Shown piece by piece: positions 19,414 through 40,431 of a stretch of DNA of 64,000 bases. The position numbers and the translations under genes were made by a program. The stretch comes from an uncultured Candidatus Saccharibacteria bacterium (GTDB lineage Bacteria; Patescibacteriota; Dojkabacteria; SC72), in contig CAZZPP010000002.1 in assembly GCA_964655705.1 (NCBI GenBank), positions 32,231 to 96,230 on the forward strand, written 5' to 3'. The notes beneath the pieces were generated by a model, which worked only from the letters and a program-made list of their open reading frames with translations, made no database searches and was not told where the DNA came from. Each line of letters opens with the position of its first letter. Position 1 is the stretch's first letter.

Positions 19414-20832
19414 ATGAAGAAAACATATTTACTAAGTAGTATACCTAAGCTTCCTGATCAAGATACATATTTTCTAAGTCTTCAAAATGATGCTTACAGT
19501 TACCAAACCATAATTAGTTATGCAAGGGATTTGTCTATCTTTAGTGTATATTTACACTTTAATAATATCCAATTTAAAAATCTTTCTAAACAAGACGTTT
19601 TAAATTACAAAGGATACCTAAGTAGTGGGAATCATTTAAGAGATTTGGATAGAATAAGGGAGAAATGTGTAGAAAGTGGCTTTAAATCAATACAAACAGG
19701 AAGCGAGGCTCTTAGCGCCTCAACAAGGGCATCAAAAAAAACTAGTGGTATGATTGGACCTGTGGAGAATGGGGGAAAGGAAGAAAATAGCTTAAGTCGT
19801 TCTCCACAGGTATATGAGGAGGACTTCTTGTGTAAAGTCTATGGTAAGGTCTATGGTTCACTTGGTATATTGGAGAGGCCTCTTAATTCTAGAGCTAGAA
19901 GTAAAAATGGTTTGGATGCTAGAAGTATTAACCGGATGTTGTCTGCTTTAAGATCGTATCTTAAATTTAGAATTGAATTTGATTTGGATATTCCAATTCC
20001 TCCGGATAGTATAAAGATGGTAAGAACTGATAAAAAGGTTAAGAAAGTTGCATCTTTAGAGGAACTAGTTAGTCTAATTGAATCACCAATGGAGTTCGAA
20101 AAAGATGAGCGTGTAGCACTTCGTAATAGATGTATGCTAGAGATGTTGTTTGCTACTGGTATGAGAATATCGGAGTTGATTGGATTAAATATGGAGCAGT
20201 TAAATGTAGAGGGTAAGATATATGTAACTGGTAAGGGCAAAAAAGAAAGGGCAGTATATATGACTCAGAGATCTTTAGGATGGTTAAACAAATATTTAAA
20301 GTTGAGATTAGAGTACGCCTTTTCGGATAGAGAAAAAGAGGAGCAGCCAGGAAGTATTGAAAAGGTGTTCTCAGATTTAGGAGTTGAATCTCAAGCCATG
20401 AAACCTCGTGAAACATCTTCTGATGAGACAATCTCCAAGGGTTTGAATTTAGAAGTTTTTGATACAGAGAACAGGAAATATATTAAATTAATAGAAGAGT
20501 ATAGGAAGAGTAAGTTCCTAGAGAAATTCAACTCCCCTGCCCTATTCATACCTTTCGTTGGTATTAGGAGTAAAAAACCGAATTCTAGGATATCTACTAA
20601 CTATTTCCAAGAAAAAATTGCTGATTACAGAAAAAGATTAGGTATTCAAATTCCTACATCAGCGCATAGTTTAAGGCATGGTTTTGCAACATATATGGCA
20701 GAGGATGGTGCTAGTGCAGTAGCATTACAGATTCTTTTAGGTCATGAGAGTTTAAATACAACTACTAAGTATGTTCATGCTAGTGAGAAATTTGCAGAAG
20801 ATACGGTTAGAAAGAATCATCCCTTAAAATAG
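19414..20832 (+). CDS. Tyrosine recombinase/integrase (XerC/XerD-like) with large internal insertions
   Basis: N-terminal SAM-like core-binding domain. Catalytic R..HxxR..Y set (AHSLRHGFAT, LLGHESLNTTTKYVH). At 472 aa it is about 170 aa longer than canonical Xer. Confidence 0.65.
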   Translation: MKKTYLLSSIPKLPDQDTYFLSLQNDAYSYQTIISYARDLSIFSVYLHFNNIQFKNLSKQDVLNYKGYLSSGNHLRDLDRIREKCVESGFKSIQTGSEALSASTRASKKTSGMIGPVENGGKEENSLSRSPQVYEEDFLCKVYGKVYGSLGILERPLNSRARSKNGLDARSINRMLSALRSYLKFRIEFDLDIPIPPDSIKMVRTDKKVKKVASLEELVSLIESPMEFEKDERVALRNRCMLEMLFATGMRISELIGLNMEQLNVEGKIYVTGKGKKERAVYMTQRSLGWLNKYLKLRLEYAFSDREKEEQPGSIEKVFSDLGVESQAMKPRETSSDETISKGLNLEVFDTENRKYIKLIEEYRKSKFLEKFNSPALFIPFVGIRSKKPNSRISTNYFQEKIADYRKRLGIQIPTSAHSLRHGFATYMAEDGASAVALQILLGHESLNTTTKYVHASEKFAEDTVRKNHPLK

Positions 20833-21272: not shown

Positions 21273-23423
21273 CTATTTTTGTAGCATCTCTGCTGCTTTC
21301 TGTGCAGCCTGTGCTGGATTCATATTCCCATACGCTGCTCTTAGAAATTCATTTACAATATTCCCACTACTTTGTCCCATCAGTTTTTCCTTTGGAACTA
21401 ATTTTGCAAGTTCTCTAAAGAAGTCACCTTGTAACTCTCCACTTCCTCCTCCCGCATTAGTTAAATATACTTTGTCTCCAAGCCATCCCATATCATTGAA
21501 ATTCCATCCGAAATCAGATGCATTAAATGTTTCTTCAGGAATCCAATTCTCGATTGAAGGTTGATTTAATGTTGCTTCTAGACCTTGATTAAGGTTAACT
21601 TCTGGATTTGGGGTTACATCAGAAATGGGTTGTGTTGTTTCTGCACTTGCTTGAGAAAGAGTAGCTTCAGGACCAATTGGGACATTAGGAACTGGTTTGT
21701 TCATCCCAATATATATATCCTTTCCAATTATCCCTTCAAACAGAGTCCCTATACCATATCCTGTTGATCCTCCTATAAAAATGGCTCCTACTTCACCAAA
21801 CCTGTTTGCCCACCATTGAGTTCGTTTCTGTTTTTGGTCCATTTCAAATAGTTCGGCAGCTGTTTTCCCAGTTCTAGGTTCATATTTCATTGAGTTAGAT
21901 TTTGCTCTCATTTTGTCTCCTAGGGATTGGAATACATGTTTGCCTACGATTCTACCACCCAATGTAATAGCTACCGCTGCTGCTGCTGTTACTGCTGGTG
22001 TAGCCACTGCAACTCCAATGCCTGCTAATACTGCAACTCCTGTGATGTATTTCTCCTTCGTTTTCCTTTTTCTTTCACTTTCCTGAGTAGCAGTCTGTAT
22101 CTGTTTATCTATCGTTTCTTTTTGTTTTAATATATCAAAATATCTGATCTTTTGAGCATCGGTAAGGCCTCCAGAAGTAAGTTTCGATTCGAGAGCAACT
22201 AATTCGTTATTCAATGCAAGGGATCTTTGCTCAGGAGTATTTTCTCCAGAGAGTTCCCTTACCCTTTCTTGAAGATCTCGAATTGCTTCTGCATCACTTG
22301 ATACAGGATTTGGCATTGGAGTAGATTCAGGGGTAGAAGTTGTAGTACTTGTTGATTGTCCACTATTATTTTCAGGAATAGATACTGACTCTACATCAAT
22401 GATTACTGGTTCTTGTGGTTGAACAGGTTCGTGGGTCTGTTCTGGTTGTGGAGTTAATATTTCATCAGGTTGAATGGGTTGTTCAGGTTGTTGTGTTGTA
22501 GACTCATTGGTTGTGAAATCAGAAGGTATGGGTTGGTCTACAGTAAAGTTAGTGGGTTCGGTGTCATGTTCCTCTTGAGTCGCTTCTGTTTCAGGTTCAG
22601 GAGGTTGTTCTACTGTAGAATCAGTAATATCTTGAGATTGTTCAGGTTGTGGTTGTGTTACTGACTCAGAGGAAGTTTTTTGGTTCTCCTGATCCTTATT
22701 TACTAGTTGTTGGAAAAAACCGATTTCTATCTTATTTCGCTCATTCATGAGGGTACTTAACTCAATCAATTGTTCTTCAGGGGATTTATTAGGATCTCTC
22801 TCTTCTAAATATTTTTGTATCCGAATATTTAAATTGACAAGTTCCGCCTTCTCCATTTCTTTTCTTGCACTCTCTATTTGATTTTGGGTAAAGTGTAAAC
22901 GAGCACCAGGTTGTTGACTACCAGTAAATTTCATATTTTCATCTCTAAAAGTAGCTCTGTCAGAGCCATGAGTGGCGTCATATATGACTTGTGCTCTAGT
23001 TTCTTCCATCTTTTGTTGTTCTGGAGTAAGAGATTCAATCTTTTCATCCTTATGTGTAGCTACGACAATACTTTCAGTTCTCTGTTCATTTGCTAATTTC
23101 TCGTAAATGGATCCCTCTAAAGGATTAAGTGTCTCATCATATTCACTTAAATCAATATCATTAGTAGTTGGCTCTTGGGGGGTTACCTTACCAGTAAGAG
23201 TATCCTTAACATCACCTTGAGAATTGATAATTAGGTCGTTATTTGAATTTGGTATTTCCCCACTAGAGACATCCTTAACATGACCTTGGGAGTTGATAAT
23301 TAGGTCGTTATTTGAATTTTGTATTTCGCCATTAGAAACATCCTTAACATCACCTTGAGAATTAATAGTAATGTTGTTATTGTTGTCATCTTGAACAATT
23401 TCACCGAATTCGTTAAAAGACAT
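21273..23423 (-). CDS. Repeat-containing membrane-anchored protein (N-terminal 23-aa tandem repeats, Pro/Gln/Thr-rich linker, central TM, C-terminal domain)
   Basis: Three copies of INSQGDVKDVS.GEI.NSNNDLI at the N-terminus. PEQ-rich low-complexity linker. TM helix YITGVAVLAGIGVAVATPAVTAAAAVAITLGG. No N-terminal signal peptide. Confidence 0.5.
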   Translation of the reverse strand: MSFNEFGEIVQDDNNNNITINSQGDVKDVSNGEIQNSNNDLIINSQGHVKDVSSGEIPNSNNDLIINSQGDVKDTLTGKVTPQEPTTNDIDLSEYDETLNPLEGSIYEKLANEQRTESIVVATHKDEKIESLTPEQQKMEETRAQVIYDATHGSDRATFRDENMKFTGSQQPGARLHFTQNQIESARKEMEKAELVNLNIRIQKYLEERDPNKSPEEQLIELSTLMNERNKIEIGFFQQLVNKDQENQKTSSESVTQPQPEQSQDITDSTVEQPPEPETEATQEEHDTEPTNFTVDQPIPSDFTTNESTTQQPEQPIQPDEILTPQPEQTHEPVQPQEPVIIDVESVSIPENNSGQSTSTTTSTPESTPMPNPVSSDAEAIRDLQERVRELSGENTPEQRSLALNNELVALESKLTSGGLTDAQKIRYFDILKQKETIDKQIQTATQESERKRKTKEKYITGVAVLAGIGVAVATPAVTAAAAVAITLGGRIVGKHVFQSLGDKMRAKSNSMKYEPRTGKTAAELFEMDQKQKRTQWWANRFGEVGAIFIGGSTGYGIGTLFEGIIGKDIYIGMNKPVPNVPIGPEATLSQASAETTQPISDVTPNPEVNLNQGLEATLNQPSIENWIPEETFNASDFGWNFNDMGWLGDKVYLTNAGGGSGELQGDFFRELAKLVPKEKLMGQSSGNIVNEFLRAAYGNMNPAQAAQKAAEMLQK
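23203..23400. repeat. 69-bp tandem repeat (about 2.8 copies) inside the 716-aa gene
   Basis: atccttaacatcaccttgagaattgataattaggtcgttatttgaatttggtatttccccactagagac is repeated with about 90% identity. It encodes the 23-aa protein repeats. Confidence 0.8.
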
Positions 23424-23576: not shown

Positions 23577-26500
23577 ATGAAATTAAGAAAGAGTAAGAGA
23601 GTAAAGTTTGAACAAATATCAAAGTTCCTTGAAAGAAGATTCCCTGAAATACTCTTAATATTACTCTTACTATTAATATGTATACTCTCTATTCAACCAG
23701 GTAAATATCTATTATCTAATGATAACTACTCTCCTGAACTTAACCCTACCCTATCAGTATCAAGATACTTAGAATCTCCAGCATGGAGAGGGTACAGGGT
23801 ACTGGGTTTTGCATCTGAGAGTGAACAGGCAGATGTGTTTAGATCTTTGTTCTATGTAGTTTTCAACTTATTTCTTCCTTCTTGGTTAATTAGCCAACTC
23901 TTTTATTTTGTTTCATTAGTCGTTGGCTCAATATGTATAGCGACATTACTTAGAGCCTTAGTTAAGAAGAGTAAATTAAAGAGATATTCAAACTGGGGTT
24001 ATCTATTAGGTGGTATTACATATTTTACTACACTTTGGAGTATGTGGCTCTTTTACCAGAACATGGCTCCATATATTGTTAATTTCGGATTTCTCCCACT
24101 ACTCTTGCTTTTTGTATATCGGTACTCTCGACAGGATAATGCAAAATATTTAATACTAATTTTGCTTTCCTGCATACTCTTAACTCCGACTTTTGTCATT
24201 GCGACCCTTTTCATTATTGATTTCATATTTATTTTCTCTTTTACAATATTTGTTAATTTTACATCTCGATATGGGAGAAGAAGAGAGATGAAAAACATAT
24301 TAATTACAATTGTGATTTTCTTGTTAACCCAATTATTCTGGATACTTCCTTTTATTCATTATACTTTTACAAATAGCTCGGACATTATCAATTCATATAC
24401 CAACAGGAGTATTACTTCTAATGTAATTGATTTGGAGAGTGATTCTCAGACCTTAATTAATTCAGCTAGGTTTTACAACAGGTCTCTTTTTGAGAAAGAC
24501 GGAGAGAGAGATCTCTTTGTTATGTCTGATTTGTATCTTACATATGATTTTTACAAGGTATTAGGTCTTTTTCCTGCTATATTTTCAATTATTGCTTTGA
24601 TATTTGGGTTAACTAAAAAGAACTTTAAATTACTCTTTTGGGGTGTAATTGGTCTTGTATCCCTTTTTTTAATTAAAGTACACAATCCCCCCTTTGGAGA
24701 AGTATTTAGATGGTTACAAGAGAGTGTTCCTCTCTTTAAGCAGGTTTTTAGATGGCCATTTTCTAAATTAGGACAAATATATCTAATCTGTATTACAGTT
24801 CTTTCTACTTTTGGGTATATATATTTAACAAGATTCTTTGCTTCATTCATAGAGAAGAAATTCTTGAAGAGAACCTTTATACTGGTTAGTTTTGTATCAA
24901 TGTGTATTATGCAATTAATATATTCTGAGTATATGTTTAGAGGAGATACCTTTGCAGACAGGGCAATGGTTGATGTCCCGAAGAGATATTTTGAATTGAA
25001 TGAATATCTCAAAGAAAATGACCCTACAGGTAGGATATATTACGCTCCTCCATCGAATAATAATTACTTTAGAGAGTATGAATGGGGATTTTGGGGTTCC
25101 CAATTCATCTCATATATTCTTCCAAACCCTGTAATGGATATTTCTTCTGCAGTAGGATCAGATGTCGGCGAGGATGCTATGCTTAGGATATCTAATGTAG
25201 TTCGTTCAGAAAAGAAGGACGAGTTCCTTTCATTAATGAATAGATATGATGTTAGGTACGTTCTTTTTGATGGGAGTATTGATATGGAGGGATATGCTTT
25301 TGAATTAGAGGAAGAGAAGGTAAAGGAATTGTTTGCAGATTTGGAGGTTGTTTGGTCAAAAGAGGATTTAGTGCTTTACAAAATTCCACTTACTCAAGAG
25401 GCTAAATATTCTGAATCATTATCAGAAATGGATTCTAAAGAGGTTTTTGTTAAAGATATCCCAAGATACCCTACCCTCTCTCCTTTGGATATGCAGTTAG
25501 ACAATGTAAGAATTTCGGATGGTGAAATAGTGGGAGATTTCGAGTATAGAGGGTTTAGTACATATATGTATTCAAACTTACTACCTGAATCATTAAATAG
25601 TTTACCCTCAAGGGTAATCTATTCTAATGGTAATATATTTGTCTATCCATCCTACCCGTATGTTAAGGGTGATATTTCAGTAAAACCATTTAAGCAGTAC
25701 GATGGTAGTTATGAGTATTTCTCTTTAGGCCAAAGAGTAGTAAGAAAGGATGAACTAAAAGGGGGCATTACGGTTCAAGAGGAGTTTAATGCCAAGAATT
25801 CAGTATATGGTTTTTCTGAGAGGGACTTTGTATCTGTAGATATGAATCCCCTTCTGTTTCTTACTAAAGGGAGTGATTGCTCGGGAGGAAATGTAATTGA
25901 AAACACTTTTGTTGAACCACAGGAAGTGTCCTCAGGATTCAATTTAAGAGGTAGTTCTGATTCTCCTTGTGTATATACTGGAATCCCCATAGATACGTCT
26001 AGAGGAGGAATTTTGGAAATTAGGATAAATTGGGAAGCAGATATGGGTAACTTCCCCGGGTTCTGTATATTTTCAAATACGCAGAACAAATGTCTCAACA
26101 AGGAGAAATTTCTCTCTTCTCAAAGTCCGTATGGAGATGTAGAGTACCTTTTAGATACACTTTTACAACCAGATGAGAGAGTGTCTCTCATATTGTATGC
26201 TTCAAACAAATCAAATGACAGTATATCAGAGGTATTGTTTAGGAGTGTAAATATTAAATTTGCCCCTCTTAAGACACCATTACAGTTAGTGTCCTCTTCA
26301 GATATATGGGAACCAAAGGATATTTTTCTAGATGATGGGAATATATATACAGTACATATCCCAATTGTCCTTGGTAATGCGGGATATCTCTACCAAGGAT
26401 TGGATTCACAATATTTAATATGGCAGCCAAACAGATCGGATTCTCAAAGTGAGATTTTTGATGTTTATGCTAATGATGGTCAATATCAAATAGTTCAAGA

Positions 26501-27194
26501 TGATTACATTAATCAAACAGCCAATCTTTTCATTACTAACCCTAATTCTAAGTATCTAGTGTATTGGAAAGGAGTGAATATATCCAATATTCCTTCCTCC
26601 ATATGCCTAATCTATGACAAAGAAGAGAAATGTTGGTTTAGTGATATGTTACTTAGTGATACTACCTCCTCGTACCTTAATGTCATAAATGTCAAAAATA
26701 CAGAGAGACTCTTAAATGTAATATATTCTAGTAATAGCCATAAACTAATAAGCCAGAATGTATTGAAAGAATTTCTACTAATGCAATTCCCATCCTCCTG
26801 GAAAAATCTAGAGTATATCCAAGAAACAGATAGTGAGTTTGAACAAAAAGAGATGAAGTCAGTTTTTAACTCCTTTAATTCAACATATTACAAAATACAA
26901 AGGGAGGATTTAGCAGATACAGACAATGTCATAATCTCAATACCCCAAGCTTCTAGTACAGGATGGGTAGCAATTGCTAGAAATGGTTTCTGGTTGTCTA
27001 CTTTAGGAAATGATACTCGTGTAAGTATAAAGGGGTGGAAGCAAGGCTGGGATATATCAAATGTTGAGTTTGATTCAATTTCTGTCCTCTATTGGCCTAA
27101 TCTACTCTCATACCTTGGATATATTTTAATATTATTAACAGGTACATACTTATCAATTAAGTTCATACAGGAAAGAAAAAATGGAAAAAAGTAA
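23577..27194 (+). CDS. Large polytopic membrane protein with about 800-aa extracytoplasmic C-terminal domain; candidate glycosyltransferase, function unknown
   Basis: About 12-14 TM helices in the first 450 aa, then a long soluble domain and a C-terminal TM. Overlaps the start of a GT2 gene. No diagnostic motif recognised. Confidence 0.35.
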   Translation: MKLRKSKRVKFEQISKFLERRFPEILLILLLLLICILSIQPGKYLLSNDNYSPELNPTLSVSRYLESPAWRGYRVLGFASESEQADVFRSLFYVVFNLFLPSWLISQLFYFVSLVVGSICIATLLRALVKKSKLKRYSNWGYLLGGITYFTTLWSMWLFYQNMAPYIVNFGFLPLLLLFVYRYSRQDNAKYLILILLSCILLTPTFVIATLFIIDFIFIFSFTIFVNFTSRYGRRREMKNILITIVIFLLTQLFWILPFIHYTFTNSSDIINSYTNRSITSNVIDLESDSQTLINSARFYNRSLFEKDGERDLFVMSDLYLTYDFYKVLGLFPAIFSIIALIFGLTKKNFKLLFWGVIGLVSLFLIKVHNPPFGEVFRWLQESVPLFKQVFRWPFSKLGQIYLICITVLSTFGYIYLTRFFASFIEKKFLKRTFILVSFVSMCIMQLIYSEYMFRGDTFADRAMVDVPKRYFELNEYLKENDPTGRIYYAPPSNNNYFREYEWGFWGSQFISYILPNPVMDISSAVGSDVGEDAMLRISNVVRSEKKDEFLSLMNRYDVRYVLFDGSIDMEGYAFELEEEKVKELFADLEVVWSKEDLVLYKIPLTQEAKYSESLSEMDSKEVFVKDIPRYPTLSPLDMQLDNVRISDGEIVGDFEYRGFSTYMYSNLLPESLNSLPSRVIYSNGNIFVYPSYPYVKGDISVKPFKQYDGSYEYFSLGQRVVRKDELKGGITVQEEFNAKNSVYGFSERDFVSVDMNPLLFLTKGSDCSGGNVIENTFVEPQEVSSGFNLRGSSDSPCVYTGIPIDTSRGGILEIRINWEADMGNFPGFCIFSNTQNKCLNKEKFLSSQSPYGDVEYLLDTLLQPDERVSLILYASNKSNDSISEVLFRSVNIKFAPLKTPLQLVSSSDIWEPKDIFLDDGNIYTVHIPIVLGNAGYLYQGLDSQYLIWQPNRSDSQSEIFDVYANDGQYQIVQDDYINQTANLFITNPNSKYLVYWKGVNISNIPSSICLIYDKEEKCWFSDMLLSDTTSSYLNVINVKNTERLLNVIYSSNSHKLISQNVLKEFLLMQFPSSWKNLEYIQETDSEFEQKEMKSVFNSFNSTYYKIQREDLADTDNVIISIPQASSTGWVAIARNGFWLSTLGNDTRVSIKGWKQGWDISNVEFDSISVLYWPNLLSYLGYILILLTGTYLSIKFIQERKNGKK

Positions 27195-28008
27195 TCCTTT
27201 GGTATCAATAGTTATACCTGTACATAATGGAGAAAAATATATTAATGAAAGTATAGATAGTTGTTTAGATCAGACATACAAGAATATTGAGATTATTGTT
27301 GTAGATGATAAGTCAGAGGACAGGACTTTAGAGATATTAAAGGGGTACAAGGATAGAATTAAGGTAATACCTGTTGAAAAACAGAATGGTTTAGGTAATG
27401 TAATAAATATTGGGATAAGAAACTCTAAGGGCAAATACATAGCTAGAATGGATGCAGATGATGTTATGTATCCTACTCGTATAGAGAAACAGATAGAGTA
27501 TTTAGAGTCTAATCCTAATTGTGTAGCTATTGGTGGTCAGATAGATATTATTGATGAGATTAGTAAAGTAACTGGTCATAGAGAGTACGCTATTGAGGAT
27601 AGAGATATTAAAAAGAATAGATTTCTTTTTCAACCTTTTGCACATCCAGCAGTAACTTTAAGAAAAAGTACTGTAGAAGATATTGGTTTGTATCCTGAGA
27701 ATATGTGGAAGGTTGAGGATGTTAAATTTTTCTTAATTCTAAGTACTAAGGGGGAGTATCATAATCTTGAGGATACTGTACTTAAGTATAGGATGACTTT
27801 TAAAACAGAGAGTCAATCTAAGATGTTAGATCATTTTAAAAAAACTAATGAGATACGCAAATGGGCTATTAAGGAGTTAAATATTAAACCTACTGTTAGA
27901 GAGTATGTAATATGGAATATGCAAAAGATAGGTGTTAGGGTTTTAAGTATTCTTCCTTCTACTCTTTTTATGAAGTCATTTGAATTGTTTAGAAAACTGT
28001 TTAAGTAA
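27181..28008 (+). CDS. Family 2 glycosyltransferase
   Basis: VSIVIPVHNGEKYINESIDSCLDQTYKNIEIIVVDDKSEDRT (GT-A DxD region, DAD later). Confidence 0.8.
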   Translation: MEKSNPLVSIVIPVHNGEKYINESIDSCLDQTYKNIEIIVVDDKSEDRTLEILKGYKDRIKVIPVEKQNGLGNVINIGIRNSKGKYIARMDADDVMYPTRIEKQIEYLESNPNCVAIGGQIDIIDEISKVTGHREYAIEDRDIKKNRFLFQPFAHPAVTLRKSTVEDIGLYPENMWKVEDVKFFLILSTKGEYHNLEDTVLKYRMTFKTESQSKMLDHFKKTNEIRKWAIKELNIKPTVREYVIWNMQKIGVRVLSILPSTLFMKSFELFRKLFK

Positions 28009-28035
28009 AAAAAGAGGACATCCTAAGATGTCCTC

Positions 28036-28222
28036 AATGTAATATTTTTTGTCTTTTCGTCTTTAATATTTTTCAATATTTTTAGACTCATCAGTAGGAT
28101 ATATATTTTTAATAAATATTTAATCCTAGAAGACTCTAGCGTGTGATGATTGTTTTTTGGGGTTTTTTAATGATCGAAGTCAGAAAAAAGGATTATCCCA
28201 GAAAACGGCTAGAGTTTATTTT
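28036..28222. repeat. Noncoding repeat X (copy 1 of 2)
   Basis: About 187 bp, about 90% identical to 28490-28676. Contains the ctagaagactctag palindrome and a tttttggggtttttt tract. Confidence 0.8.
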
Positions 28223-28265
28223 GTTTTAGGAAGTAATTATTCCTAATTTCTTTTATTTTCATTTC

Positions 28266-28477
28266 TTCCTCCTTTTAAAAGGAACATAATTTTTATTTTC
28301 AGCAATACCACTTGGTATGCATTCTATCTCCAATAAATATATTAGAAACATAATGCATACTATTTGGATGCTTAAAAGAAGAAAAATACTTTAGTATTTC
28401 ATCACACACTATTTTGTTTTAAATATATAAGACATAAGTCTATATAATATACTTAAAAACTTTTAAAAGAACTTGCT
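28266..28477. repeat. Noncoding repeat Y (copy 1 of 2), with RBS and a collapsed 17-codon ORF remnant on the minus strand
   Basis: About 210 bp, about 90% identical to 29141-29349. Contains the GTATGCAT-N29-ATGCATAC inverted repeat. The minus strand reads aaaaggaggaagaaATGAAAATAAAAGAAATT...TAG. Confidence 0.8.
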
Positions 28478-28489
28478 AGAATAAAAATT

Positions 28490-28676
28490 CAATGTAATAT
28501 TTTTGTCTTTTCGTCCTTAATATTTTTCAATATCTTTAGACTCATCAGTAGGATATATATTTATTAGATATTAATCCTAGAAGACTCTAGCGTGTGATGA
28601 TTGGTTTTTGGGGTTTTTTAACAACAATTAAGTGTTAAAAAGATAATCCCAGCAACCGGCTAGAGTCGATTTGAAA
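28490..28676. repeat. Noncoding repeat X' (copy 2), immediately 3' of the Cys-rich lipoprotein gene
   Basis: Direct repeat of 28036-28222. Ends exactly at the stop codon of the minus-strand gene. Confidence 0.8.
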
Positions 28677-29138
28677 TTACTTGTAAACAGGCTTGTAGCC
28701 GGGGTCCGTGGTGAAAGGCTGTGCAGCAATGCATTCAAGAAATCGAGCTTCTTGATATTGGTACACATATGCACCTGCTGTATACTCCATAGGAGTCCCT
28801 TTTACAACATAGACATCGCCGGGATTTAATCCTTTTGGATCATAGACATAGTTGATTGTACAAAAAGTACAACTACCATCTTCCTTTACAGGAATCCCTA
28901 CGATTTCAGCCTGACACCAGCCAGTATTAACTTCTCCTGGAGCTGGTTCAACTGTGGTTACAGTTTGTTCACATGTAGGACACTCTTGGCATGGAGCAAT
29001 TTGGCATCCATCTGAAGCCATCAATCCTCCAATGTCGTAGCAAGCTGCGACATAGTCCTCTGAGAAATCCTTCTTCGCCAAGCAACATGCGCTTAAGCAA
29101 AGGGCCAATACGACAAACAAAACGACAATCTTATTCAT
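28677..29138 (-). CDS. Small cysteine-rich secreted lipoprotein
   Basis: Start at MNKIVVLFVVLALCLSAC (lipobox LSAC), preceded by AAAGGAGG. The mature part has about 12 Cys (CYDIGG, DGCQIAPCQECPTCEQ, WCQAEI, SCTFCT, ECIA). Confidence 0.6.
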   Translation of the reverse strand: MNKIVVLFVVLALCLSACCLAKKDFSEDYVAACYDIGGLMASDGCQIAPCQECPTCEQTVTTVEPAPGEVNTGWCQAEIVGIPVKEDGSCTFCTINYVYDPKGLNPGDVYVVKGTPMEYTAGAYVYQYQEARFLECIAAQPFTTDPGYKPVYK

Positions 29139-29140
29139 TT

Positions 29141-29349
29141 TTCCTCCTTTAAGGAAATAAAAATCATTTATTTTCAGCAATACCATTTGGTATGCATTCT
29201 ATCTCCAATAAATATATTAGAAATATAATGCATACCACTTGGATGCTAAAGGAAGAAATAGACTCTACTTATTCATCACACGCTATTTTGTTTTAAATAT
29301 ATAAGACATAAGTCTATATAATATACTTAAAACTTTTTAAAGAACTTAG
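29141..29349. repeat. Noncoding repeat Y' (copy 2), immediately 5' of the lipoprotein gene (promoter/RBS region)
   Basis: Direct repeat of 28266-28477. Includes the RBS and the GTATGCAT ... ATGCATAC inverted repeat at 29190-29235. Confidence 0.8.
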
Positions 29350-29636
29350 AGTTCATAAGAACTCATAAAAGATATTTAAAGAGAATATCTCTCTATGAAT
29401 ACTTATGTGTATTTGAATGAAAATTTATTATTAAAGAGCAGACTTTATTAACAATTAACTACTTATATTATACTATAGGTTGGAATAAATATCAATACTT
29501 GAAATAGGTTAGGTCAGGTTTATTTCTTAATGAGCAATTAATTATTAAGATACATATATTATACTATAAGTTTAGCAATTTTTCAATATTTCCTACTCTT
29601 CATAAATATTTAATACTCTTTTGTTAGCATTGAGAT

Positions 29637-30218
29637 ATGGTATCTAAATCATGCTATGTATTCATTGATTCATCTAATCTCTTCTATGGAGGGAAGAGAA
29701 GATTGGGATGGAGAGTAGACTATCTTAAGTTATTTAAATATCTAAAAAGAAGATATAGGATGAGAGAGATCTTCTATTATTCAGGAGTAGAAGCTCATGG
29801 TTTTGAACCTCTACTTTTATCGTTAGAGAGATATCCAGTAGAGAGTTTATACAAATATCTCCAAGAGGAGTTTAAGAAAGCAGATAGAGAAGAAAAAGAA
29901 TCCCTCCAGAAAGATATCTCTAGGGCGAAGTTTTTAAGAAAGATAGAAGAGTTTGGCTATACTCTTAGATTAAAACCAATTAAACATTTAAGAGATTTCA
30001 AAGGTAGGATAAAGAGTAAGTCTAATTGTGATGTTGATTTAACTCTTGATGCTATTAGATTGGAGAAAGAGTATGACACTTTTATACTGCTTTCAGATGA
30101 TGGTGATTTTGAAATACTTCTTGGATATCTAAGAGAAAAAGGGAAGACTATTGTAGTAATAGCAAACAGTGACAATACAGCAAGAATTATAAGGATAGAT
30201 ACCAAGGGAACTTTATAG
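29637..30218 (+). CDS. NYN-domain (LabA-like) putative ribonuclease
   Basis: YVFIDSSNLFYGGK..VDYLKLFKYL..IFYYSG and CDVDLTLDAIRLEKEYDTFILLSDDGDFEILLGYLREKGKTIVVIA match NYN/LabA catalytic acidic residues. Confidence 0.7.
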   Translation: MVSKSCYVFIDSSNLFYGGKRRLGWRVDYLKLFKYLKRRYRMREIFYYSGVEAHGFEPLLLSLERYPVESLYKYLQEEFKKADREEKESLQKDISRAKFLRKIEEFGYTLRLKPIKHLRDFKGRIKSKSNCDVDLTLDAIRLEKEYDTFILLSDDGDFEILLGYLREKGKTIVVIANSDNTARIIRIDTKGTL

Positions 30219-30255
30219 ATTTCTCTAGAATTAAAGAAGTAATTAAAGAATAAAA

Positions 30256-30290
30256 ATGGGAGGATCGCCCATATAGGAAGGTCCTCCCGA
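30256..30290 (-). terminator. Hairpin terminator (likely for the abiEii operon; possibly bidirectional)
   Basis: gggagga-N17-tcctccc stem. On the minus strand it is followed by ATTTTTATTCTTT. Confidence 0.4.
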
Positions 30291-30474
30291 GGTCTAGTGT
30301 TTAAGTATAATCTAAAGATTACTAATATTCAAGAAGATATTTATGAACAATGTAGGAGTGTAGAATAAGAAAAAGTGGCATTTACGGTCGGTCGAAACCT
30401 TAGATTAGTCCAGTTATGGTAATTCGCATATTGTATTTCTTTCTAAACGGTATCTCAGGACAACATTTTACATA

Positions 30475-31086
30475 TTACTTAACGGAAATATCTATAAGAA
30501 AGTTTTCTATCTCTTTATCTGAAGGAGGGTTATCAATTCTCCATATTACCTCTTCTGAATAATCAATATCTTCAAAATAGCACAACTGTTGTAAAAACAT
30601 TCTTTCTGAAAATATAGTACCATATATATCCTTGGCCTCTTTAATAATATCTTTTATGGAGTACTCCTTTAGCAATATATACATATCTACATAGTCTTTC
30701 CATTTTCCTCTTCTACCTAGTGTATATGCCTTCATTGCTCCTATTGTAAGTGGAGATGCAATAGAAATCTTCTCTTTTTTCTCTATGCCTTTTACTTTGA
30801 AAGGATATCTTAGAAATGTAATCTTAACAGAATTTATGAATATTGTATATTCATCTAATTTATCAATTACACTCTCTATATCCCTATATCCTAAATCAAT
30901 TAACTCTTTCAAAATATCTTCATTTTTAAATCCTTTGTAAGAAAACAAATCAAAATCTAGAGATTCTCTATGACCAAGTTGAAGAGCAAGTGCAGTTCCT
31001 CCAGCTAAGTAAAACCCTTTTTGCGAGAAATGTTCTACGATATTAAATACTTCAATCTGTTTTGGATTTAGTATGTATTTATGCAT
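30475..31086 (-). CDS. AbiEii/AbiGii-family nucleotidyltransferase (DUF1814) toxin-like protein
   Basis: FYLAGGTALALQLGHRESLDFDLF matches the AbiEii GGTAL..G.R.S.DLD nucleotidyltransferase motif. Confidence 0.75.
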   Translation of the reverse strand: MHKYILNPKQIEVFNIVEHFSQKGFYLAGGTALALQLGHRESLDFDLFSYKGFKNEDILKELIDLGYRDIESVIDKLDEYTIFINSVKITFLRYPFKVKGIEKKEKISIASPLTIGAMKAYTLGRRGKWKDYVDMYILLKEYSIKDIIKEAKDIYGTIFSERMFLQQLCYFEDIDYSEEVIWRIDNPPSDKEIENFLIDISVK

Positions 31087-31348
31087 TTCTCTTTAAATAT
31101 AGATCGATATAATTAATAACTAAAGGAGACAAGTTTGACCTTTTTTTGTTTCTCAGTTTAAAATATTCTTTTTGAAAATCTTCTTTTTCTTTTAACACCT
31201 CCCTTAGCTGGTTCATGTCACCATAGTTAAGAATTCTTTCAAGAATGGCTAGTTCGCTTAGTTTAGCAATCTTTTCTTTAGGGATATCCCAAAATATCTT
31301 GCTATTTCTTATAGATTCTCTCTTTAACAAAATTGAAAATGTATTCAT
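31079..31348 (-). CDS. Small partner protein of the AbiEii-like gene (candidate antitoxin/cognate regulator)
   Basis: 89-aa ORF overlapping the toxin-like gene by 8 bp in an operon-like arrangement. FWDIPKEKIAKLSELAILERILNYGDMNQL motif. Confidence 0.45.
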   Translation of the reverse strand: MNTFSILLKRESIRNSKIFWDIPKEKIAKLSELAILERILNYGDMNQLREVLKEKEDFQKEYFKLRNKKRSNLSPLVINYIDLYLKRNA

Positions 31349-37206: not shown

Positions 37207-40200
37207 TTAAACGTCTAAATTAGCTTTCTTAGCATATCTTTGAATGAATCTTCTTCTAGGAGGTACTTCACTTCCCATTAACATCTCAAAAGTTTTTTCA
37301 GCTTCCTCTGCATCTTCAATATGTACTCTCTTTAGGGCCCTGTTTTCTGGATTCATAGTGGTTTCCCATAACTGATCCGGGTTCATTTCTCCTAATCCCT
37401 TAAATCTGTTTGCTACAGGTGTTTTACCAGCGTTTTTAGCTTTCTTAACAAAAGCATCCTTCTCGTTATCATTTAGGAAGTAGTATTTCTTCTTACCAAT
37501 TTCTACTTTGTGAAGAGGTGGTTGTGCAACGTAAATATATCCTTGCTCTATTAAAGGCTTAAAGAATCTAAAAAGGAGTGTAAGTACCAATGTAGTTATA
37601 TGTAATCCATCTACATCTGCGTCACTCATTATTATTACTTTATGATACCTTAGCTTGCTTATATCAAGTGTTGTACCAATTCCCACCCCTAATGCTGTGG
37701 TAATATCTTTAAACTCATTGTTTCCCAGGACCCTATCTACCCTATATTTGTTTGTATTGATTATCTTACCTCTTAGAGGAAGTACAGCTTGAGTATGCCT
37801 ATCTCTACCTTGTTTAGCACTATTATGGACAAAGACCCCACTTGCAAGGGCAAAGTTATGTGTTTTTGGTACTTCCAAATCAAATACATCTATTTTTTCT
37901 TTCAAATATTCTATTGATACAATTTTATGATTAAAGTGTTTAACAGCATCTTCTAATCTCGCCATATCATTATCAAAAAATCTACTACATAGTGTGGGGA
38001 CTTTGAGTAGAGTTTTGTTGTTTAAATCTCTTCTTACCTTGTTATATGCTTCAACAGAAACCTCACCGAAAGTATCGTAGACAGATCTAAGGACTTTTAG
38101 ACTCCTGTCAAGATATGTCCTGTTGTACGCTTTTTTTCTTTTAAGTATAAATTCTTCAGTCCACTGCTCTTTAGTTTTTTCAGAGCGCCATTTAAGAAGT
38201 TCCACATTACTCCACTGCTTCTTGGCAGAAATGGATAATTTCTCTAAAGCCTCTGGGTTGTTTTTTAGATATTGAGAGACTTTTTTAGATTGTTTAAAAC
38301 GATTCTCTTTTTTACTCCAATACTCTTTTTGGAGAAGATTTAGTCTTCGATTGTTTTCTTTTTGATATTCTTCATTGGTGAAATAGAAGGCAAGGAATTT
38401 ATTCTTCATATATTCCTTGTACTCCTCGTTCTCCCACTGTTTCTTAGCATTCTTACTAAGAAGAGACCTTGTTGATGGTTTAAGCATTGAGTTTCTCATC
38501 TTCTCCTTAAACTCAGGGCTGCTTCTTAATACTCTAAGTTTCTCATATACTTGCTTAGTATGGAGGGTCTTTGCTATATGTTTCTGATGTATTACGAGAT
38601 GGTCTTCCTTGCTTAATCTAACAATATTGTTTGGATTATTATTTAACTTATTAAAATCTTTATGATGTTTGTAGGTACCCTCGAAGTTTTTGTATACATT
38701 ATGTCCCAAGTTATATTCATCTGACAATACATGTGTAAACACCCATTTTGAACTGGAGGGATTTAATACCATCTCATAGCCTTCTATTGTGATTCTTCCT
38801 TTTTTCTCTGACAATTTCTTGTACAAAGGCATAAGGGAGTCATGCTTGGAGAGATCTTTAGCTTTCTTGTATGACCCATCTCTAAGCATGAATTTGTGGT
38901 CAGGTGTACATACAATTTCCTCTCTGTTATCTAAAGTAACTTTAATAACTGGAGTATTTCTTTTTGTTCTTCTTACGTTTTGGATTTCTGAAATTGATAC
39001 CTTTCTACTATCTGTAATTGTATAGCAGTAGTTCTGTTTACCTTTCTTCTGCTCTTCAATTAATTCTAAGAAAGTCAAAGACCTCCCATCTGCAAGAGAC
39101 ACTCTTGTATCTCCAGAAAAACATCCACCGGCACTATCGCCTTCCACAATATACAGTTCAGAATCTTTAGGATCATTGCTAATACAATCTGCTAATTTAC
39201 CTGGTAAAGTAGTACTCTCTAATGCACTCTTTCTAATGACTGCATCTCTTGCTGCTTTAGCAGCAGCTTTTGCTTTGTAAGAAAGTATTGCTTTGTCTAA
39301 AATGGATTTTGCCTCCTTAGGATGTTCATCTAAGTATACTAGTAGTTCATCTCTAATTACTTTAGCTACAGCATTTTTAACCTCTGGATTATTTAACTTT
39401 ATTTTTGTTTGACCCTCAAATTGAGGATTTGCTACTTTAACAGATACTACTGCAGTTAAACCCTCTCTAACATCATCTCCATTTAAAGAGGTTGTTAAAC
39501 CTTTAAGGAGATCGGATTTCTGAGCATACGAATTAATTGCACTTGTAAGAGCAGTTCTAAAACCTGAAAGATGGGTACCACCCTCTGGATTTATGATGTT
39601 GTTAGTATAGCAGCGGACATTTTCATCCATTCCATTAGTGTATTGAATCGCAGATTCTACAATAATTCCATCTTGGTCTTTTTTAACATAGAAGGGGATA
39701 TCATTTACGAGTTTCTCGTCTATGTTCATAAACAGGACATATGACTTAATACCATCCTCAAAATACACATCAAAGATCTTAGGATCCTTACCCTCCTCTA
39801 CTCTTTCATCAAGAAGGGATATTCGTAGTCCTGCTGTTAGATATGCATGTTGTCTACATTTTTTAACTAACTCTTTGAAATCAAAATCTGTTTGCGTAAA
39901 TATCTGACTATCTGGCATAAATCTATGTTCTGTACCAGTTTCATTCTCAACACTCCCAACCTTTTTAACAGGTGCTTTCGGGATACCTCTTTGGTACTCT
40001 TGTTGATACACTCCACCATCTCTTCGTACAGTGGTAATCATCCATTCTGAGAGAGCATTAGTACATTTCATACCGACACCATGAAGACCTCCAGAAACTT
40101 TGTATGCACCCTCTTCAAACTTCCCACCTGCATGTAGATTAGTCATTACAGTTTCTAGTGTAGAAACCTTTGTCTGAGAGTGAATTTCTACTGGTATTCC

Positions 40201-40431
40201 CCTACCATTATCTTTAACAGAAAGAGAGCCATCTTTATGTAGTGTTACCCATATCCTGTCACAGTATCCTGCTATGGCTTCATCAACAGAGTTGTCTAAA
40301 ATCTCAGTAAATATATGGTGTAAACCATTCCTATCAGTAGATCCAATGTACATTGCAGGTCTTTTTCTTACTGCCTCAAGTCCTTGTAAGACCTGAATAT
40401 TGGATGCTTTGTAATCACTCTTCTTTGGCAT
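37207..40431 (-). CDS. gyrB: DNA gyrase subunit B, intein-containing precursor
   Basis: GHKL ATPase N-terminus (ILDNSVDEA, GLHGVG). The conserved EGDSAGG|SAKQGRD is split by a 434-aa insertion. TOPRIM/C-terminal domain is intact. Confidence 0.9.
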   Translation of the reverse strand: MPKKSDYKASNIQVLQGLEAVRKRPAMYIGSTDRNGLHHIFTEILDNSVDEAIAGYCDRIWVTLHKDGSLSVKDNGRGIPVEIHSQTKVSTLETVMTNLHAGGKFEEGAYKVSGGLHGVGMKCTNALSEWMITTVRRDGGVYQQEYQRGIPKAPVKKVGSVENETGTEHRFMPDSQIFTQTDFDFKELVKKCRQHAYLTAGLRISLLDERVEEGKDPKIFDVYFEDGIKSYVLFMNIDEKLVNDIPFYVKKDQDGIIVESAIQYTNGMDENVRCYTNNIINPEGGTHLSGFRTALTSAINSYAQKSDLLKGLTTSLNGDDVREGLTAVVSVKVANPQFEGQTKIKLNNPEVKNAVAKVIRDELLVYLDEHPKEAKSILDKAILSYKAKAAAKAARDAVIRKSALESTTLPGKLADCISNDPKDSELYIVEGDSAGGCFSGDTRVSLADGRSLTFLELIEEQKKGKQNYCYTITDSRKVSISEIQNVRRTKRNTPVIKVTLDNREEIVCTPDHKFMLRDGSYKKAKDLSKHDSLMPLYKKLSEKKGRITIEGYEMVLNPSSSKWVFTHVLSDEYNLGHNVYKNFEGTYKHHKDFNKLNNNPNNIVRLSKEDHLVIHQKHIAKTLHTKQVYEKLRVLRSSPEFKEKMRNSMLKPSTRSLLSKNAKKQWENEEYKEYMKNKFLAFYFTNEEYQKENNRRLNLLQKEYWSKKENRFKQSKKVSQYLKNNPEALEKLSISAKKQWSNVELLKWRSEKTKEQWTEEFILKRKKAYNRTYLDRSLKVLRSVYDTFGEVSVEAYNKVRRDLNNKTLLKVPTLCSRFFDNDMARLEDAVKHFNHKIVSIEYLKEKIDVFDLEVPKTHNFALASGVFVHNSAKQGRDRHTQAVLPLRGKIINTNKYRVDRVLGNNEFKDITTALGVGIGTTLDISKLRYHKVIIMSDADVDGLHITTLVLTLLFRFFKPLIEQGYIYVAQPPLHKVEIGKKKYYFLNDNEKDAFVKKAKNAGKTPVANRFKGLGEMNPDQLWETTMNPENRALKRVHIEDAEEAEKTFEMLMGSEVPPRRRFIQRYAKKANLDV
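37822..39123 (-). mobile_element. GyrB intein (434 aa) with HNH-type homing endonuclease domain
   Basis: Starts with Cys after GDSAGG (CFSGDTRVSLADG, Hint block A). Ends with VFVHN followed by +1 Ser. Internal HHKDFNKLNNNPNNIVRLSKEDHLVIHQ is an HNH motif. Long Lys/Glu-rich linker. Confidence 0.8.

Follow-up and report, generated by a model that had tools for sequence, protein, structure and literature searches.

In Borrelia (vsp/vlp, with their upstream and downstream homology sequences) and Mycoplasma (vsa/vsp), surface proteins are expressed from a single site with constant flanks; the body of the gene is replaced by recombination, and the alleles are mosaic. Bacteria belonging to the candidate phyla radiation (CPR) are thought to depend on cell-surface contact with their hosts. 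To our knowledge, the function of bacterial hammerhead ribozymes is still largely unknown, and most known examples lie in prophages beside unrelated genes. Perreault et al. (2011, PMC3088659) observed that bacterial hammerheads, mostly of prophages, adjoin single genes that differ from case to case, and proposed that they cut long transcripts down to gene-length mRNAs. The present analysis concerns a stretch of 64,000 nucleotides (nt), hereafter the window, from an uncultured bacterium of the Dojkabacteria (assembly GCA_964655705.1, contig CAZZPP010000002.1, positions 32,231 to 96,230), in which a small lipoprotein gene stands among two copies each of the repeats X and Y, and each X contains a hammerhead motif.

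The X and Y repeats are probably the trailer and leader, respectively, of a conserved expression socket that occupies a fixed site in Dojkabacteria and carries a hammerhead and a swappable surface-protein payload. As read from the sequence, the socket appears to sit between variable toxin–antitoxin-like genes and a convergent GT2 glycosyltransferase gene. Its putative parts are two strong promoters, the leader, the variable payload, the trailer (a rod-like structure with an X box, followed by the hammerhead) and a terminator. The payload would comprise the distal leader hairpin, the ribosome-binding site (RBS) and a gene that encodes a small ectodomain protein, either membrane-anchored or a lipoprotein.

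Repeat units and the hammerhead motif

Self-BLAST of positions 27950–29450 against the window aligned X1 (28034–28221) with X2 (28489–28672) at 86.3% identity over 190 columns (E 4e-56) and Y1 (28258–28474) with Y2 (29134–29347) at 88.6% over 219 columns (E 6e-73). On the plus strand the collinear copies follow one another as X1-Y1-X2-gene-Y2, as repeat searches and pairwise alignments also indicate, and no third copy of X or Y was found in the 64-kb window. This is the X-Y-X'-gene-Y' arrangement given by the initial annotation, and the two tandem units of leader, coding sequence (CDS) and trailer that it placed on the minus strand are recovered as well; the identities fall slightly under its figure of about 90%, and Y measures about 215 nt. 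On the minus (coding) strand the order is Y2, CDS, X2, Y1, a 17-codon open reading frame (ORF) and X1. Unit 2 carries the intact Cys-rich lipoprotein gene with its lipobox, which has 153 codons and a stop, and not 154 amino acids (aa) as annotated; unit 1 carries the short ORF. Coordinates are collected in Table 1.

Two consensus sigma-70-like promoters, P1 and P2, were found, both upstream of Y2; no promoter precedes Y1. X2 ends at ...ACATTGA, precisely where the terminator stem of X1 starts in pairwise alignments, and the only good terminator hairpin is the one after X1, with none 3' of hammerhead 2. Because promoters and terminator lie outside the repeats, Y can be taken as a transcribed leader and X as a transcribed trailer, and the description of the repeats as a duplicated promoter/terminator module does not hold: neither element is inside a repeat and neither is duplicated. 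Both units apparently share a single transcript, which would start near 29460, from P1. P1 and P2 each lie in a 41-nt direct repeat (29460–29500 and 29551–29591; 73% identical, 91 nt apart); both promoter-like sites are conserved in relatives, and a small hairpin of its own comes after P2.

The main feature of X in both copies, overlooked in the initial annotation, is a type III hammerhead motif. Both copies read, on the minus strand, GAGUCUUC^UAGGAU-(loop)-AUCCUA-CUGAUGA-GUCU-(stem-loop)-AGAC-GAAA-AGAC, with the cleavage site at U16.1-C17. The motif was recovered only by E-value searches and a covariance model of our own; the gathering score of the Rfam family RF00008 is 48.5 bits. Alignments to RF00008 run end to end in both window copies and in the relatives tested, with scores of 36.0 bits in L027 and 26.3 bits in L020, L-numbers denoting related loci or contigs (about 20 distinct loci, collected from the contigs of protein relatives and by DNA-pattern scans for trailer and leader). 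The scores remain below the gathering value because stems I and II are long and AU-rich, and the long insertions in their loops are penalised.

The core nucleotides C3-U4-G5-A6-N7-G8-A9 and G12-A13-A14 are invariant in 14 distinct sequences, except that N7 is U or A; position 7 is the one position of the hammerhead core that is free to vary. The N-U-H cleavage site is A15.1-U16.1 followed by C17 in both window copies and in 13 of the 14 variants, while L027 has the swapped pair U15.1-A16.1 and keeps C17. Stems I and II are closed by loops, stem III is open, and all three show covariation. In an analysis of 14 sequences, which followed one of 12, 98.2% of cells were paired as against 34–48% for slid partners, 11 of 21 pairs changed on both sides and none of 500 shuffles matched; the structure-aware alignment was fitted to the hammerhead model, which favours these pairing figures somewhat. 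Stem I, UAGGAU/AUCCUA, becomes UAAGAGU/ACUCUUA in L020 and UAAGGUU/AAUCUUA in L034. A U-A pair of distal stem II becomes C-G in L013, and in L027 and L034 stem II is short, GUCC/GGAC. All three have a stem III that is shorter by one pair, on both strands alike. By anatomy and covariation the X element is assigned to the hammerheads, with catalytic activity as a prediction. In the A7 variants, CUGAAGAG (L014:3466-3558, L017, L023, L025 and L032), an extended stem I (CUUC:GAAG) covering the core is predicted.

Trailer rod and leader–trailer pairing

Ahead of the hammerhead, the same rod was predicted in all 15 trailers from different lineages, each folded alone. It consists of the outer stem GACUCUAGC/GCUAGAGUC, a second helix that varies with the lineage, a GGGG/CCCC helix and a terminal hairpin with a stem sequence that changes from nearly every lineage to the next (GUC/GAC, CAU/AUG, UGC/GCA and others). 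In these single-trailer folds the X box CAUCACAC is unpaired, in an internal loop of the rod. RNAalifold, applied to trailers aligned by MAFFT, recovered the invariant outer stem only, the variable helices being misaligned; single-sequence folds were used for this reason.

The rod ends 3 nt before C17, and its 3' strand GCUAGAGUC overlaps the 5' strand of hammerhead stem III, GUCUU. In L034 this shared strand has changed from G to A, and both partners, the rod 5' strand and the hammerhead 3' strand, have changed from C to U (one event). Such a triple change, as read from the alignment, is what two alternative selected pairings would predict. When trailer and hammerhead were folded alone, the full rod was kept and stem III stayed open in 13 of 13 units; forcing stem III cost 0.7–5.5 kcal/mol.

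The leader of the socket is a multi-hairpin region of about 190 nt that ends in the 13-nt Y box and a UAGAG motif. Sixty-five of its columns are invariant across 15 lineages. The proximal leader is 93–99% identical to that of the window in 13 of 16 loci, and 83% and 90% identical in L020 and L010, the two most divergent lineages; the distal leader exists in three sequence types that assort freely among loci. Weak matches of the long Y hairpin to microRNA families were set aside as generic hairpin similarity. The arms of the proximal hairpin (29291–29332, minus strand), AUAGAC...GUCUUAU, have the same sequences as the stem III strands of the hammerhead, AAGAC/GUCUUC; in L020 this hairpin is changed to GGAU/AUCC with the trailer unchanged, and the likeness to stem III may be due to chance.

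The Y box UAGCGUGUGAUGA is the exact complement of the X box UCAUCACACGCUA in nearly every locus (12 nt in L013, 11 nt in L034). Two substitutions in the boxes, C to U in Y1 and A to G in the X box of L027, are both G.U-compatible on the sense RNA. The UAGAG(U) motif, 5–9 nt 3' of the Y box, is conserved and complementary to the 5' strand of the rod. Full-length folds, from the P1 start to the end of the hammerhead (about 1 kb), were made for 10 lineages with unrelated ORFs, and the Y:X helix had a mean pair probability of 0.90–0.99. Both Y:X and UAGAGU:ACUCUA are present in the lowest-energy full-length folds of the window, L020 and L022; L028 has Y:X only. RNAduplex comparison of leader with trailer gave loop-ridden duplexes no better than the best shuffles. 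Closure of the untranslated regions (UTRs) by leader–trailer pairing is, at the level of modelling, a robust prediction.

Addition of a 40-nt leader fragment to trailer and hammerhead brought the complete hammerhead junction into the lowest-energy fold in 10 of 13 units. Without the fragment this occurred in 0 of 13, with shuffled leaders in about 4% and with a mutated Y box in 2 of 13. The three lineages in which the fragment fails to switch the fold are L014 and L025 (the two A7 variants tested) and the compact L027 (U7). Gating of the ribozyme by the leader is put forward as a hypothesis only, because the full-length folds leave stem III unformed. Opening of the rod coupled to translation was considered and dropped, as the stop codon may lie anywhere from 8 to about 40 nt away from the rod.

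In the preferred interpretation as an expression socket, P1 and P2 would drive transcription of the long structured leader, and the payload would be translated. The hammerhead would cut the mRNA 3 nt past the rod and so remove the terminator shared with the GT2 gene. The short stem III would then melt, and the rod or the leader–trailer helices would enclose the new 2',3'-cyclic-phosphate end, giving every payload an identical, helix-protected 3' end. Pairing of Y with X and of UAGAGU with ACUCUA would close the mRNA, and the flanks, 100–200 nt of near-identical DNA on each side, could act as homology arms for replacement of the payload between strains.

A more specific scheme is possible but doubtful. 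Here the Y:X and UAGAGU:ACUCUA pairings would displace the outer stem of the rod and pass the GAGUCUU strand to the hammerhead, trimming would take place only in the presence of the cognate leader, and the same arms would swap payloads by homologous recombination. Were this self-contained mRNA chassis real, a defined cellular role and an RNA effector in cis would for the first time be known for a bacterial hammerhead, and the two cuts in the tandem array would also release a 451-nt RNA with ligatable ends.

Payload exchange and the tandem array

Each of the related loci, labelled Candidatus Dojkabacteria where named, has one Y-gene-X unit; its position is the same throughout, and it converges on the GT2 gene adjoining X1 in the window. 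Upstream of the socket in relatives is a GT2-like gene followed by variable small genes (AbiEii, NYN and others); the surroundings at large, with gyrA, gyrB, holB and VanY, are chromosomal. The adjacent GT2 coding DNA is mostly 80–90% identical to that of the window, as against the 93–99% of the proximal leader in 13 of 16 loci. No phage copy of the socket was found; viral scans for the leader and trailer patterns gave chance matches without BLAST homology. A viral-collection match to a hammerhead 20-mer (L031) lies inside a coding repeat and contains no hammerhead.

The genes between these flanks differ. Exchange of gene bodies between conserved flanks, offered as an alternative in the initial annotation, is strongly supported by the approximately 20 loci in which the same flanks surround different, mosaic small genes. 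At least three leader types, at least three membrane-anchor types and at least three unrelated ectodomain types occur. Ectodomain type A (CTFCTINY...DPGY) is found in the window, L001, L010, L014 and L023; type B (GTITFD...LFPTK) in L020, L022, L025, L026, L030, L032, L034 and L036, with L016 as a divergent member; type C in L017 and L027; and type E in L028. The N-terminal anchor types, at least three in number, cut across these groups: the lipoprotein anchor module of the window (SEDYVAACYD.GGLM) is fused to a type B ectodomain in L034, a module of a transmembrane segment (TM) with WxWGF occurs with ectodomains A, B and D, and a K/T-rich tail with TM occurs with A, B and C. The nearest relatives by flanking genes, L030 and L022 (GT2 86–90%, NYN 97–98%), carry type B, whereas the window carries type A. 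These patterns support exchange that extends to sub-gene modules, namely distal leader, anchor and ectodomain. The cassette protein of the window has only two database relatives among 5.8 billion sequences, and look-ups of its exact sequence retrieved no accession or contig. No Pfam domain was detected in any cassette protein type tested, that of the window included, a PDB sequence search with the type A protein was empty, and an AlphaFold2 model of that protein from 3 sequences had a predicted local distance difference test score (pLDDT) of 39. The type C payload of L027 (minus strand) has six tandem AKTAPV repeats in its N-terminal tail; the tail of L017 is K/T-rich without the repeat.

Only the window has two units among the related loci, and no second contig with a tandem array was found; the array is lineage-specific, since every relative has one unit. 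Its copies are collinear and head-to-tail, with a novel junction, as in a tandem segmental duplication. The match of unit 1 to the 5'UTRs of relatives runs to 28245, and its match to their 3'UTRs sets in at 28215, which leaves about 30 nt between the homologies. As unit 1 is thus a 5'UTR joined to a 3'UTR, the collapsed CDS described earlier is real. Unit 1 has lost its CDS, the leader hairpin and part of the rod, and keeps an intact hammerhead and the sole terminator. It has 9 changes at the 65 invariant leader columns, 8 of them in the junction hairpin and 1 in the Y box, as against 0 in unit 2; both hammerheads are intact at all invariant columns. The duplication can hardly be called recent, as it had been, because the copies differ by 11–14% and unit 1 carries these private changes at leader sites invariant in 15 other lineages.

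The hammerhead of X2 is identical to those of L019, L030 and L036, and that of X1 is one base from that of L022. The first 23 nt of the remnant ORF match the start of the L022 type B gene at 18 of 23 positions, a weak match in A-rich sequence, the 3' piece matching at 6 nt only. Because the two hammerheads match different lineages and the start of the remnant resembles type B (weakly), the array may record the arrival of a type A unit upstream of a resident one, which decayed afterwards, and not a simple self-duplication. Most likely, to judge from the alignments, unit 1 is what remained after a duplication or after a cassette replacement that was not completed, the join having been made at a short microhomology.

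A plain local tandem duplication of gene, promoter and terminator, followed by deletion of one CDS and leaving repeats that are mere regulatory DNA, was the main reading of the initial annotation. It would account for two collinear units of which the second has no CDS, for the possible TGAG microhomology at the junction and for the single unit in every relative. As history this is true; as an account of the modules it is incomplete and, taken as the whole explanation, improbable, since promoters and terminator are not within the repeats, and what is repeated is leader and trailer, which many genomes conserve and which contain a ribozyme motif and covarying structures. The tandem array could, alternatively, be false, a contig in which two strain variants of the locus were fused during assembly. 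The contig is metagenome-assembled, the locus is hypervariable between strains, the two hammerheads have different nearest relatives and no second contig has the array. Against this, X2 and Y1 join at no sequence common to both repeats, so that the join is not one which a k-mer graph would produce; the CDS deletion of unit 1 is unique, and its 9 private changes recur in no other contig; and in a chimera of strains the second allele should be intact. With this junction and these private changes, an assembly chimera is very unlikely.

Three further readings were set aside. An integron cassette array is contradicted by the lack of an integrase adjoining the units, the nearest tyrosine recombinase being 7 kb away across unrelated genes, by modules that are transcribed leader and trailer with an RBS of their own and not attC, and by single-unit relatives. 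A phase-variable inverton does not agree with one orientation in more than 20 assembled contigs that hold both boxes, with no adjacent invertase. For a diversity-generating retroelement, the mismatches between X1 and X2 and between Y1 and Y2 are of all kinds, the repeats are non-coding, and no reverse transcriptase was present among the neighbours scanned.

Cuts at both hammerheads (28579 to 28129, minus strand) would release a 451-nt RNA containing the body of hammerhead 2, leader Y1, the 17-codon ORF and rod X1. Its ends would be 5'-OH and 2',3'-cyclic phosphate, which are substrates of RtcB-type ligases.

The following points weigh against the interpretation as a ribozyme-bearing socket with exchangeable payload. 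No hammerhead reaches the Rfam gathering threshold in the window or in six loci (18–36 bits versus 48.5). In the lowest-energy full-length folds the probability of stem III is about 0, the strand going into an extended stem I that covers the core. The L001 group (also L002–L008 and L029) has lost the hammerhead and kept the gene, so the ribozyme is dispensable in that lineage. The Y and X boxes are nearly invariant and, for that reason, the Y:X helix shows no true covariation; the inverted boxes may have a role at the DNA level. Recombination at the flanks is inferred, being read from mosaicism; the remnant may come from a type B or from a type A gene; and the tandem join is known from one contig of a metagenome-assembled genome.

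The first of these points also bear on whether the motif still cleaves. It is quite improbable that it does not, and is kept as a protein-binding or terminator-assisting structure while the terminator alone makes the 3' end. This would fit the scores under the Rfam threshold, the long AU-rich stems I and II, an active fold that is not the predicted lowest-energy one, the U15.1-A16.1 of L027 in place of the canonical pair and the absence of the motif from the L001 lineage. However, all core nucleotides other than position 7 are invariant in 14 distinct sequences, and stem changes are always compensated, the paired shortening of stem III by 1 bp included, as expected of an active ribozyme and not of a generic hairpin. 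In L001, ...GAGUCUUC is followed at once by the second half of the terminator. The junction at L001:6115-6150 (GCTAGAGTCTTC to AAAGATGTCCTCTTTTTTT) corresponds, relative to L014-type relatives, to a deletion from the exact cleavage site to the terminator loop. It could be a coincidence or the trace of an RNA-templated event.

A DNA-level role would be most explicit if the 13-bp inverted boxes TAGCGTGTGATGA/TCATCACACGCTA were sites for a recombinase, in an inverton- or integron-like system. They are perfect inverted repeats at or near both edges of the variable region in every locus (the 3' box within the trailer), and a tyrosine recombinase gene lies about 7 kb away (19414–20832). This is nonetheless highly improbable. 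The gene has one orientation in all of the more than 20 contigs with both boxes; module borders occur within the payload as well, separating distal leader, anchor and ectodomain, as suits homologous recombination and not exchange at two fixed sites; the box variants keep G.U pairs on the sense RNA and would be A.C mismatches on the other strand; there is no attC-like structure and no adjacent integrase at the locus; and RNA folds place the boxes in a high-probability helix.

The recombinase of 472 aa is encoded on the plus strand and has Phage_integrase and N-terminal SAM-like domains; three large genes without a Pfam match separate it from the socket. Near GT2 are genes for proteins of 1205 aa (23577–27194, plus strand) and 716 aa (21273–23423, minus strand), neither with a Pfam match; the 1205-aa protein has many predicted membrane segments, and its gene is kept, in synteny, in relatives. 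Variability also marks the interval from the upstream GT2-like gene to the socket (window 29637–31348; L001:3621-5070; L002:3798-4661). An NYN-domain gene is found there in the window, L019/L030, L022 and L027, and AbiEii (with DUF6922) is common to the window and L022. L001 has a different 216-aa gene and a 272-aa AbiEii gene; L002 has two other small genes, though its cassette protein is the same as that of L001. The gyrB gene (37207–40431, minus strand) contains an intein, with an Intein_splicing domain at residues 444–870 that splits the Toprim region.

Table 1. Features of the socket and its tandem array in the window (positions in descending order follow the direction of transcription)
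Feature	Position	Strand	Remarks
Promoter-like site P2, TTGAAA-17-TATAAT	29586 to 29558	−	11/12 consensus matches; kept in relatives; outside repeats
Promoter-like site P1, TTGATA-17-TATAAT	29495 to 29467	−	11/12 consensus matches; kept in all lineages, including divergent L020; outside repeats
Unit 2 leader (Y2 and small GAGTTC hairpin 29349–29364)	29134–29364	−	None of the 65 columns that are invariant in 15 other lineages is changed
Unit 2 leader parts, 5' to 3'		−	Proximal hairpin 29291–29332, Y box, UAGAGUC motif 29261–29267, distal hairpin 29172–29249, RBS
Unit 2 Y box, UAGCGUGUGAUGA (RNA)	29273–29285	−	Complement of X box; in every related locus; Y:X probability 0.92 (full-length fold)
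Cassette gene, Cys-rich lipoprotein, 153 aa, anchor type i, ectodomain type A	29138 to 28677	−	Lipobox LSAC at residues 15–18; no Pfam domain
Unit 2 trailer rod	28583–28667	−	Outer stem GACUCUAGC/GCUAGAGUC, covarying inner helices, X box in internal loop
Unit 2 X box, UCAUCACACGCUA	28588–28600	−	Read from sequence, compared across loci
Hammerhead 2, type III	28503–28587	−	Predicted cleavage 28580/28579 (after C 28580); RF00008 22.6 bits; own model 106 bits
Duplication junction 28488/28489	28475–28495	−	Trailer ...ACATTGA (28489) joined to degenerate leader GAGTTC hairpin GAGUUCUUAUGAACUC; possible TGAG microhomology
Unit 1 leader (Y1)	28258–28474	−	No promoter of its own; Y box 28399–28411 with C to U; UAGAGU changed to UAAAGU
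Remnant ORF, MKIKEIRNNYFLKQNKL and stop, 17 codons	28262 to 28209	−	Strong RBS; stop codon within CTCTAGC of the trailer
Unit 1 trailer rod, weakened	28132–28216	−	−16.8 kcal/mol (the 14 other trailers: −22.6 to −31.6); X box 28137–28149
Hammerhead 1, type III	28049–28136	−	Predicted cleavage 28129/28128; RF00008 18.2 bits; own model 108.3 bits
Terminator hairpin, GAGGACATC-loop-GATGTCCTC	28035 to 28014		Single copy, after unit 1 only; common to convergent GT2 gene
Convergent GT2 glycosyltransferase gene	27181–28008	+	

Comparison with known systems

The hammerhead described here has a fixed, interpretable place, 3 nt past a protective stem and before the terminator of a strongly promoted chromosomal gene. 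The ribozyme-deleted lineage, the compact-stem variants and the tandem array constitute natural controls, and owing to these and to the fixed position a role in forming the 3' end is directly testable. The locus is also a single CPR slot in which anchor and ectodomain modules reassort freely and the expression signals stay invariant. The protein encoded there may be a surface protein under diversifying selection, and the conserved arms of the locus could serve as a handle for finding such genes in metagenomes.

Hammerheads of the prophage-associated kind (PMC3088659, where the Clec2 ribozyme is cited as the mouse hammerhead) share with the present ones the core, the three-helix junction with an open stem III and a position at a gene boundary with a neighbouring gene that varies between genomes. 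In contrast to them, the locus of the window is chromosomal and syntenic and belongs to a CPR lineage; a lone hammerhead occupies the 3'UTR, with a conserved rod before it and the terminator after it; the strand of its stem III is shared in part with a competing stem; and a conserved leader accompanies it. Full-text searches returned no literature linking hammerheads with CPR or Patescibacteria beyond two incidental mentions, and no account of the socket locus among the 15 best-ranked of 79 Dojkabacteria papers.

Martick et al., in 2008, are said to have found a discontinuous hammerhead in the 3'UTR of rodent Clec2 mRNAs that lowers expression by removal of the poly(A) tail. There, as here, the hammerhead is in the 3'UTR of a protein-coding mRNA and cleavage parts the ORF from its normal 3' end; the cleaved end in the present case, however, would stay in a stable rod, which in bacteria should protect it. 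In Staphylococcus aureus, pairing of the icaR 3'UTR with the 5'UTR reportedly covers the Shine–Dalgarno sequence, recruits RNase III and represses the gene (Ruiz de los Mozos and colleagues, 2013). The likeness is a short conserved 3'UTR motif that is predicted to pair with its own 5'UTR, but the boxes of the socket are distant from the RBS and beside a ribozyme. The hammerhead insulators of RiboJ type, reportedly introduced by Lou and colleagues in 2012, are engineered and act at the 5' end of the mRNA. They likewise make an mRNA end independent of the adjoining insert by self-cleavage, while the hammerhead of the socket is natural and would act at the 3' end.

With the Borrelia and Mycoplasma expression sites the socket has in common a constant promoter, leader and 3' flank around a mosaic surface-protein gene. 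It differs in that no silent archive copies were found, collection scans giving one locus per contig or genome, in that the flank carries a ribozyme, and in that nothing points to programmed switching. Since the scans revealed no silent copies, and the window only the tandem pair, exchange would take place between strains and not within the cell. The hammerhead itself belongs to a known class, and its socket, with the fixed site, the rod, the leader pairing and the mosaic payload, varies on two known kinds of system, variable surface-protein expression sites and ribozyme-bounded genes.

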